From assembly GCF_988243305.1 (NCBI RefSeq), contig NZ_OZ547136.1: a stretch of DNA of 64,000 bases. One strand, written 5' to 3'. The translations under genes were made by a program, and so were the position numbers. The notes beneath the pieces are model-generated. The model was not told the origin of the DNA. It did not search any database and worked only from the letters and a program-made list of their open reading frames with translations. Shown here one piece after another: positions 33,212-34,312 of this stretch (its first letter is position 1; the number at the start of each line of letters is the position of its first letter).

Positions 33212-34312
33212 TTAGAACTGATAGGTAATGCCCGTTGCGACGATGTTATCGGTGCGAATATCTACGGCACGGGTAAAGACGCTTTCATCAATCAGGTTGA
33301 TTTTATAATCAACATAGGTCGACATATTTTTGTTGAAGAAATACGTCGCACCAACGTCGATATACTCAATCATGTCCTGGTCGCCGTAGCGGCCCAGATC
33401 TCTGCCTTTCGATTTCAGGTAAGCGAGTGATGGGCGCAAGCCGAAGTCGAATTGATATTGTGCCACTACTTCAAAACTTTGTGCTTTGTTAGAGATATAA
33501 CCATCGCCATAGGTGGTCATGTTTAATGTTTCAGCGTAATTAGCTGCAAAGTAGATGTTGTTGGCATCATATTTTATACCTGTAGCCCACAGTTCTGCAT
33601 TCTTACCGGAGGCATTGAGAGGATTAGCAGCGGCTCTTTCCTGCGCATTTGTCCGATCGGATTTGGTATACACCGCACCGATACCAAAGCCATCATAAAC
33701 ATAAGTTGAGGAGATACCGAAACCGTCACCATTGGCACGCGTGTAGTCAGCACCATAAAGATGGCCATTGTCAGTGCGTTCATTTTTGCCTTGATATTGC
33801 GCGGCAAAGTTCAGACCTTCAATTAAGCCGAAGAAATCGTAGTTGCGATAGGTTGCCACACCGGTAGTACGGTATGTCATGAAGACATCTTTCTGACTCC
33901 AGGTATCGCCACCAAATTCTGGCAACATATCGGTCCATGAACCAATGTCATAGCCGACACCGTAGTTACGACCATAGTCCAGAGAGCCAAATTCACTAAT
34001 TTTTAAACCTGCATAGGCCAGACGGGTCTTGTTACCGCGCGAGCCGTTGGCTTCATCGTTATAGCCTTTAAAATCATATTCCCAGTGACCAAAACCAGTC
34101 ATTTGATCATTGATTTGCGTTTCTCCTTTAAAGCCGAGACGGGCATAAGTTTTATCACCATCGTCACGCTTATCATCAGTAAAATAACGTAGAGCGGTAA
34201 CCTTGCCATAAAGGTCGAGTTTATTACCATCCTTGTTATAGACTTCGGCAGCGTGTGCTACGTTCGCAGCTAACAAACCAGTTACAACCACCGCAACTAT
34301 TTTTAATTTCAT
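33212..34312 (-). CDS. yddL: General diffusion porin, OmpC/OmpF/PhoE family (intact; K-12 yddL is a fragment at this position)
   Basis: 366 aa; signal peptide [37 protein letters not shown] and C-terminal ...TGITYQF beta-barrel signature. Confidence 0.8.

Follow-up and report, generated by a model that had tools for sequence, protein, structure and literature searches.

An intact porin gene beside yddG in Escherichia coli is the positional orthologue of Salmonella ompD

We describe a complete 366-codon porin gene next to yddG in a 64,000-nucleotide stretch of DNA (contig NZ_OZ547136.1 of NCBI RefSeq assembly GCF_988243305.1; hereafter the window). In our judgement, with a probability of about 0.87, it encodes a functional, vertically inherited general-diffusion porin which is the Escherichia orthologue of the yddG-adjacent OmpD. 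The porin was already known, being annotated in more than 1,000 genomes and present in the literature since 2010-2012. The refinements added here concern the ancestry of the porin relative to that of the adjoining LRR genes, the deletion junctions at this locus, the chimeric nature of yddK/yddJ in K-12, the loss of the MicC target site and a RefSeq name which is misleading.

The porin gene and its product

The gene order in the window is narZ-narU-LRR-LRR-porin-yddG-fdnG (Table 1). The initial annotation had placed the porin next to the nitrate reductase Z and formate dehydrogenase-N genes, and this is indeed its setting, with narZ/narU downstream and yddG followed by fdnGHI upstream. The ompD slot is defined by yddG, its conserved neighbour on the left. 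The selenocysteine codon of fdnG breaks this gene up in the ORF list; the SECIS element of fdnG is present and was the sole match in an Rfam scan of the window, which returned nothing near the porin.

Table 1. Positions of the features of the porin locus in the window, with the basis of each assignment
Feature	Position	Strand	Basis
LRR gene B, 417 aa (orthologue of O157 EspR1/Z2242), GC 34%	30467..31720	minus	
LRR gene A, 421-aa ORF (042 orf1600; O157 Z2240+Z2241), GC 35%	31783..33048	minus	
Intrinsic terminator-like hairpin, 9-bp stem with 6 G-C pairs, T-run	33177..33200	minus	Consensus match, function inferred
Porin CDS, 366 aa	33212..34312	minus	ORF listing, Porin_1 match, alignments to solved porins
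Position of the Salmonella MicC target, codons 23-26, reads GAAGUCUAUAAC	34235..34246	minus	Site-restricted duplex energy
Signal peptide, codons 1-21	34250..34312	minus	Crystallised mature OmpC/OmpK36 chains begin at residue 22
RybB seed-complementary site, codons 7-9, UGCGGUGGUU	34286..34295	minus	Duplex energy, inference only
yddG-porin intergenic region, 259 bp	34313..34571	minus	Site scan, consensus matches
Shine-Dalgarno-like AAGGA	34322-34326	minus	Consensus match
Sigma-70-like hexamers	34387..34358 and 34472..34444	minus	Consensus matches, 9/12 positions
CRP-like half site TTCGACTTCGATCACA	34458-34473	minus	8/10 consensus match
yddG, aromatic amino acid DMT exporter	34572..35453	minus	NCBIfam equivalog NF008676, 471 bits vs cut-off 194; synteny
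Deletion 1, absent in K-12 and B1 genomes	32497..34034		blastn vs K-12 RP437 and O104:H4
Deletion 2, absent in K-12 and B1 genomes	31523..32164		Junction within ATTGA(A/T)TTATC
Segment missing in B2-type genomes, 4,152 bp	30339..34490		Porin with upstream region and both LRR genes

An intact OmpC-family porin with a complete signal peptide and a C-terminal beta-barrel signature had been proposed from the sequence, and all three features are borne out at this level of family. The ORF listing gives one reading frame only, with an ATG start and zero internal stops, and a Pfam profile search matched Porin_1 (PF00267) over its full length (residues 27-366 onto profile positions 1-337 of 337; E = 1.2e-134, 449.5 bits, the cut-off being 23.7). 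Residues 1-21 consist of n-, h-, and c-regions ending in AHA, and in the alignment residue 22 stands opposite the first residue of mature OmpC and OmpK36. The mature protein begins AEVYNK, in agreement with the AE(V/I)YNKDGNK which in this family follows a cleavable Sec signal peptide. The C terminus reads TGITYQF, the terminal Phe being the aromatic end that the family uses for outer-membrane assembly.

The identical protein sequence was found on 231 contigs, and the reading frame is therefore not a sequencing accident; the undetected frameshift which the initial annotation had named as a risk did not materialize. The count of 231 refers to the exact sequence, and the size of the corresponding protein cluster was not used because the cluster includes unrelated LepA proteins, a clustering artefact.

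Over residues 22-366, the protein is about 57-60% identical to OmpC, OmpK36, OmpF, and PhoE as crystallised in their mature form. The basic cluster K16/R42/R82/R132 (OmpF numbering) is kept in full as K37, R58, R97, and R148, and the acidic D113/E117 of loop L3 are kept as D128/E132 along with the PEFGG motif (P131-G135). The L2 latch pair E71 and R100 as well as F340 (OmpF numbering) are likewise retained. An AF2 model (pLDDT 77.8, pTM 0.76) contained 16 long strands, with a helix near the N terminus (5-14) that lies outside the barrel and is of low confidence. The model matched OmpC 2J1N, OmpK36, and OmpF with TM scores of 0.85-0.91, and its best Foldseek match was OmpC 2J1N (E = 3.9e-46, TM 0.85/0.90). 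By all sequence-level criteria the protein is a general trimeric porin, for which channel activity and trimerisation are predicted.

By homology, the porin would be exported via Sec, cleaved of its 21-residue signal peptide and inserted by BAM through its C-terminal Phe, after which it would fold as a 16-stranded beta-barrel and trimerise via the L2 latch. The pore would be narrowed by loop L3, with its PEFGG motif and D128/E132, opposite the basic residues K37, R58, R97, and R148. Small hydrophilic solutes including beta-lactams may thus cross the outer membrane through it.

Orthology to OmpD and not to OmpC

RefSeq calls identical genes "ompC: porin OmpC", and the gene passes the NCBIfam OmpC model (495.6 bits against a cut-off of 484), both of which would favour its being OmpC or a second ompC copy, as RefSeq/PGAP has it. 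However, that model is a subfamily model and not an equivalog, and it is passed by only 11.6 bits. The equivalog cut-offs for OmpF (461 vs 583) and PhoE (459 vs 599) were missed. The true ompC of K-12 sits at another locus, between apbE and rcsD, and its product is just 62% identical to the window porin, while bootstrapped trees split the window gene from OmpC/OmpN with 100% support. We consider it exceedingly improbable that this gene is an ompC; as a claim of orthology the name is refuted, and it is valid at the family level only.

The alignment with OmpC, OmpF, PhoE, and OmpN which the initial annotation had suggested as a check showed that all belong to the same family, the window porin having 63% protein identity to OmpN, 62% to OmpC, 61% to OmpF, and 59% to PhoE of K-12. 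They share the Porin_1 family, the 16-strand fold (predicted here) and identical constriction-zone residues, but they occupy other loci and form a separate clade. The nearest named relatives are a porin of C. koseri (78-79%), Salmonella OmpD (72-74%), and the NmpC/Lc porins (68-71%). In the comparison with OmpD (74%) and the C. koseri porin (79%), identity was above that of any K-12 porin.

Salmonella ompD occupies the same yddG-adjacent slot between fdnGHI and narU/narZ and shares family, length, and pore residues with the window porin. The full arrangement in Salmonella and C. koseri is fdnIHG, yddG, porin, GFA-smvA-smvR, narU, narZ, which differs from the window on the right-hand side, where two LRR genes stand in place of GFA-smvA-smvR. 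A further Enterobacteriaceae genome has the same arrangement on the left-hand side, with a porin next to yddG, and in Enterobacter hormaechei ompD adjoins yddG as well (PMC11874173). In E. albertii, a porin with 82-87% nucleotide identity is present in the yddG slot, split by IS1 in the strain examined.

A bootstrapped neighbour-joining (NJ) analysis separated an OmpD/NmpC group from OmpC/OmpN/OmpF/PhoE in 100% of the replicates, and in 91% the window porin shared a clade with syntenic porins of the C. koseri type. A single clade of all syntenic porins appeared in only 28% of the replicates, as the phage-borne NmpC/Lc porins nest near Salmonella OmpD. A first NJ tree built on all columns put the window porin outside OmpD and NmpC on a long branch. 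On the basis of the shared yddG slot, the 74-79% identity and the tree placement, the window porin is by position the orthologue of Salmonella OmpD, and the Escherichia branch which carries it is long. The earlier description of it as an extra general porin therefore needs adjusting: it is a general porin, yet it is an OmpD orthologue by position and not an additional copy of OmpC.

The small RNA literature takes nmpC as the E. coli "ompD" (PMC3333887; PMC2808357). NmpC and Lc are porins of lambdoid prophages which fall in the same OmpD/NmpC clade (100% bootstrap) with 68-71% identity to the window porin. NmpC-type proteins are in fact closer to Salmonella OmpD (81%) than to the window porin (69-71%). 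NmpC/Lc are prophage-borne, whereas no phage genes flank the window porin, whose neighbours are yddG, the LRR genes, and narU. Judged by chromosomal position, it is the window gene (yddL/Z2239) and not nmpC that corresponds to ompD in E. coli.

Previous descriptions of the locus

Chaudhuri (2010) reported that Ec042-1601 of enteroaggregative E. coli (EAEC) 042 is an "apparently functional ompD" and paired it with the K-12 prophage pseudogene nmpC, not with yddL (PMC2808357). The approximately 190 residues of Ec042-1601 printed in Fig. S12 of that paper match the window protein except for T72I, and the RefSeq record of 042 holds the same 1,101-bp gene adjoining yddG. In Okeke et al. (2011) the locus appears as O-island 62, comprising Z2239-Z2242 or 042 orfs 1601-1599, with the observation that yddL resembles the 5' end of Z2239 (PMC3079680). 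By their account the island occurs only in ECOR strains of the group D type, in O157/O55, and in some Shigella (PMC3079680). No paper on the function of the E. coli protein itself came up in our literature search.

The window gene is the same gene, at the same locus, as Z2239 of EDL933 (O-island 62) and Ec042-1601, with protein identities of 98.6% and 99.5%, respectively. The window allele is two to five residues apart from those of O157 and 042 and has V345, a position at which D is found in the three alleles compared. In the window and in 042, LRR gene A reads through as one ORF, while in O157 it is frameshifted into Z2240 and Z2241.

Three states of the yddG-narU interval in E. coli

A megablast survey of 5,426 complete E. 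coli genomes revealed three states of the yddG-narU interval. The intact full-length porin is present in 1,018-1,111 of these genomes, including O157:H7, an O145 strain, and EAEC 042. The majority have a K-12-type double deletion, and in total about 80% are without an intact porin. Given that about 80% of E. coli genomes live without the gene, the porin is dispensable.

That K-12 has only a fragment, as the initial annotation stated, was confirmed in the K-12 derivative RP437, which matches nucleotides 1-284 of the gene alone and in which the fragment is annotated "yddL: porin, incomplete, missing C-terminus". The K-12 yddL corresponds to the first ~276-284 nt of the window porin gene. Deletion 1 takes out porin codons ~94-366 together with the terminator and a 5' portion of LRR gene A; its junction joins GGCTCGCGCGG directly to CAAGAATCTCTG and has short microhomology. 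Deletion 2, likewise flanked by microhomology, fuses LRR genes A and B into a chimeric yddK/yddJ gene. The K-12 yddK/yddJ is thereby fully explained as a deletion chimera of two LRR genes and is not the insertion suggested in PMC3079680. The junctions in the B1 strain O104:H4 are identical to those of K-12, which indicates one ancestral event common to A and B1.

In B2-type genomes, such as that of APEC O1, yddG abuts narU and the whole segment from window position 30339 to 34490 is missing. The junction contains 6-9 bp of filler, for which no match to E. albertii or the island was found.

Origin of the porin

Okeke et al. (2011) proposed a recent gain of the whole island on the strength of a GC content of 33-36%. 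A porin recently acquired as part of the low-GC O-island 62, or brought in by a lambdoid phage as a protein of the Lc/NmpC type, would also fit with its strong match to the phage porin family phrog_410 (E = 1.6e-181), with its GC content of 44% against a window average of 48%, and with its patchy distribution across E. coli. The GC content is also lower than the 50% of Salmonella and Citrobacter ompD. On the other hand, the slot beside yddG also holds the porin in Salmonella, Citrobacter, one further Enterobacteriaceae genome, and E. albertii, 91% of the bootstrap replicates unite the window porin with syntenic porins of the C. koseri type, and phage genes are absent from its flanks. The really low GC content belongs to the LRR genes (34-35%) and not to the porin, and the K-12 and B1 states are demonstrably deletions of the porin.

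E. albertii has the porin without the LRR genes: about 115 bp past the porin stop codon, its sequence rejoins the narU upstream DNA at window position 30338. No LRR homologues were found by tblastn in the Salmonella, Citrobacter, or E. albertii loci. The E. albertii arrangement, the split in GC content, and the lack of LRR homologues in these relatives all indicate that O-island 62 is a composite of an ancestral porin and an E. coli-specific LRR insertion. The porin is older than the adjoining low-GC LRR genes, and its loss from most E. coli came later. A recent arrival of the porin with the island was rejected on synteny and the E. albertii arrangement, and we regard horizontal acquisition, whether with the island or from a phage, as very unlikely.

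In the vertical reading favoured here, the intact porin is the ancestral state. One lineage, phylogroups A and B1 with K-12, lost codons ~94-366 in a deletion at microhomology, which left yddL as a remnant, and in B2-type genomes the entire segment is missing. The gene is kept under purifying selection in lineages of the D/E/F type, O157:H7 and EAEC 042 among them.

Selection on the retained gene

The dN/dS ratio between the window and O157 alleles is 0.066, and that between O157 and 042 is 0.042. Against Salmonella the ratio is 0.064, at a divergence where dS is saturated. These values show that purifying selection maintains the porin where it is present. The divergence from Salmonella OmpD is concentrated in the external loops, which are 53% identical, compared with 81% for the strands. 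Such a concentration of divergence in loops is usual for surface-exposed porins.

Expression and regulation

The porin has its own 259-bp upstream region and is followed by a terminator-like hairpin starting 11 nt past the stop codon, and because of these two features it looks like a separate transcription unit outside the nar and fdn operons. Analysis of the upstream region and the terminator gave no sequence evidence for regulation of the porin with narZ or fdn. Conservation of the upstream region is approximately 98% across the window, 042, and O157, K-12 included. The CRP match, located ~150 nt before the ATG, is of half-site quality (8/10), and FNR-like matches to the consensus reach 7-8/10.

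In Salmonella, MicC represses ompD at codons 23-26 (PMC3333887). As a positive control, the known 12-bp duplex was reproduced for Salmonella (-15.8 kcal/mol) and C. koseri (-15.7 kcal/mol), whereas the site-restricted duplex on the window gene reached only -6.8 kcal/mol. Two synonymous changes, GAG to GAA and GTA to GTC, break the 12-bp duplex in the window version. The best alternative MicC site in the window mRNA (-7.7 kcal/mol) was inside the shuffle background. MicC control as in Salmonella was consequently rejected for the window gene, the duplex being broken and no other site rising above the shuffles. The MicC target is a regulatory feature of Salmonella (PMC3333887) and is no criterion of OmpD orthology.

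A putative RybB seed site lies at the same codons as in Salmonella ompD (+18..+27) but contains two G.U wobbles. Its duplex energy is -13.7 kcal/mol, compared with -18.3 for Salmonella and -17.4 for C. koseri and with a 5th percentile of shuffles of -12.6, and the site appears to be weakly retained. For SdsR, the full-length duplex (-40.7) was weaker than the shuffle mean (-44.2), and this value is therefore uninformative.

The initial annotation also left room for a gene that is not expressed. The O157 orthologue Z2239 has been seen by MS/MS, with two peptide hits only, in the proteome of O157 in DMEM (Kudva 2012; PMC3420319). In the same table, intimin has 36 hits (PMC3420319). Porin peptides may be common to paralogues, and the two hits of Z2239 come from another strain than that of the window.

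The porin may nonetheless be quiescent, that is, intact and conserved with very low expression under ordinary conditions, like ompN and nmpC, and with little role in permeability unless induced or selected. The two peptide hits of Z2239 against 36 for intimin are in line with this, as are the loss of the gene in about 80% of genomes by two routes with no obvious penalty, promoter-like hexamers that match at just 9 of 12 positions, and E. coli precedents (Prilipov et al. 1998, cited in PMC3333887). Against it, the dN/dS of ~0.05-0.07 denotes selection where the gene is retained, the upstream region is highly conserved, and the Salmonella orthologue is the most abundant porin of that species (PMC4215857). 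We regard quiescence as a serious contender, at somewhat less than even odds.

Salmonella OmpD becomes more abundant under anaerobiosis and less abundant at low pH or under oxidative stress (PMC4215857). The suggestion in the initial annotation that the porin could be relevant to anaerobic growth is, by analogy with this rise of OmpD under anaerobiosis, a reasonable one for the E. coli porin. The same annotation suggested that the porin may matter in gut growth and may serve as a receptor for phages or colicins.

Implications

The findings contain no new kind of biology. They correct three points: by position the ompD counterpart in E. coli is yddL/Z2239 and not nmpC, O-island 62 is composite, and yddK/yddJ is a deletion chimera. 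Approximately 20% of complete E. coli genomes encode one general porin more than K-12. Since RefSeq names this extra porin "ompC", the carrier genome has two genes of that name, and studies that score the integrity of ompC/ompF to account for resistance to carbapenems or cephalosporins can be misled by this.

When Enterobacter hormaechei loses OmpC along with the OmpD encoded next to yddG, it gains carbapenem resistance at the expense of virulence (PMC11874173). In Salmonella, OmpD dominates among the porins and acts as a protective antigen (work cited in PMC2808357). A literature search found nothing comparable for E. coli. It is conceivable, although we think it rather unlikely, that the yddG-adjacent porin, as the true E. 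coli OmpD in place of nmpC, has escaped MicC and is physiologically relevant in lineages of phylogroups D/E/F (O157:H7, strains like EAEC 042, and clinical clones related to them) both as an extra route for beta-lactams and carbapenems and as a surface target for phages, colicins, or antibodies. If this were true, any inference of porin-loss resistance that looks at ompC and ompF only, or is confused by the RefSeq name "ompC" for this gene, would err systematically in about one fifth of E. coli.

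Leucine-rich-repeat genes and their K-12 counterpart

Beside the OmpD-type porin gene lie two leucine-rich-repeat (LRR) genes in tandem, A and B, which share ~29% identity with each other, have a GC content of 34-35% and show weak similarity to the type III secretion effector SlrP. The gene B orthologue is annotated as EspR1 in O157. Gene A is an unbroken ORF in the window and frameshifted in O157; orf1600 of strain 042 has likewise been reported intact. For two near-identical genomes, O17_K12a and 042, RefSeq lists just a partial "hypothetical protein" at the gene A position.

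The yddK/yddJ gene of K-12 (L002:6270-7645, the K-12 locus) is a deletion chimera of these two genes, in which 332 bp of gene A are joined to the 3' part of gene B. Okeke et al. (PMC3079680) proposed an insertion as its origin, a reading that we reject in favor of the deletion chimera. In O104:H4 (B1) the chimeric gene forms an unbroken ORF of 443 aa, whereas it is frameshifted in K-12.

Features of the window
Feature	Position	Strand	Remarks
T6SS accessory cluster and downstream ORFs	5652-14166	+	
VgrG	5652-7616	+	T6SS accessory cluster
DUF2169	7632-8573	+	T6SS accessory cluster
PAAR-like toxin-domain protein	8566-9699	+	T6SS accessory cluster
DDE_Tnp_1 transposase	10433-11569	+	After T6SS accessory cluster
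692-aa ORF	12088-14166	+	Weak M23 peptidase match
LRR gene B	30467-31720	-	417 aa
LRR gene A	31783-33048	-	421 aa
Segments relevant to the yddK/yddJ chimera	31523-32164 and 32497-34034		Deleted in K-12/B1 genomes
fdnG SECIS element	36268-36326	+	Rfam SECIS_3, 84 bits

Variable loci and fdnG

Strain 042 aligns with the T6SS accessory cluster and its downstream ORFs only in fragments, and the cargo therefore differs between lineages. Approximately 320 bp of 042, carrying a RelE/ParE-family toxin gene adjoining the HigA-family antitoxin gene yddM, are missing from the window (40617-40721 versus L008:26413-26835 in 042), so that yddM appears orphaned there.

A mechanical ORF list presents fdnG as two ORFs (35686-36273 and 36322-38733) split by an in-frame UGA. 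The SECIS element coincides with this UGA, the codon at which formate dehydrogenase-N is expected to carry its selenocysteine.

Porin inactivation, alleles and naming

In one E. albertii strain (CP034213.1, L016:6137-8014), the orthologous porin is split by IS1 into 85-aa and 337-aa pieces, a further independent inactivation of this porin within the genus. A second IS1 truncates narU in the same strain.

Residue 345 of the porin, in external loop L8 (codon ~33278-33280), is Val in the window and Asp in O157, 042 and O17_K12a. Because 231 contigs encode a protein identical to that of the window, Val345 is a genuine allele and not an error.

PGAP assigns the symbol "ompC" to the porin gene in RefSeq carriers, for example at L001:6001-7101, L003:6001-7101 and L008:18834-19934 (the last in 042), and each carrier genome thus presumably holds two genes with that symbol. 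Such a doubled symbol would be apt to mislead automated analyses of porin integrity or of the resistome.
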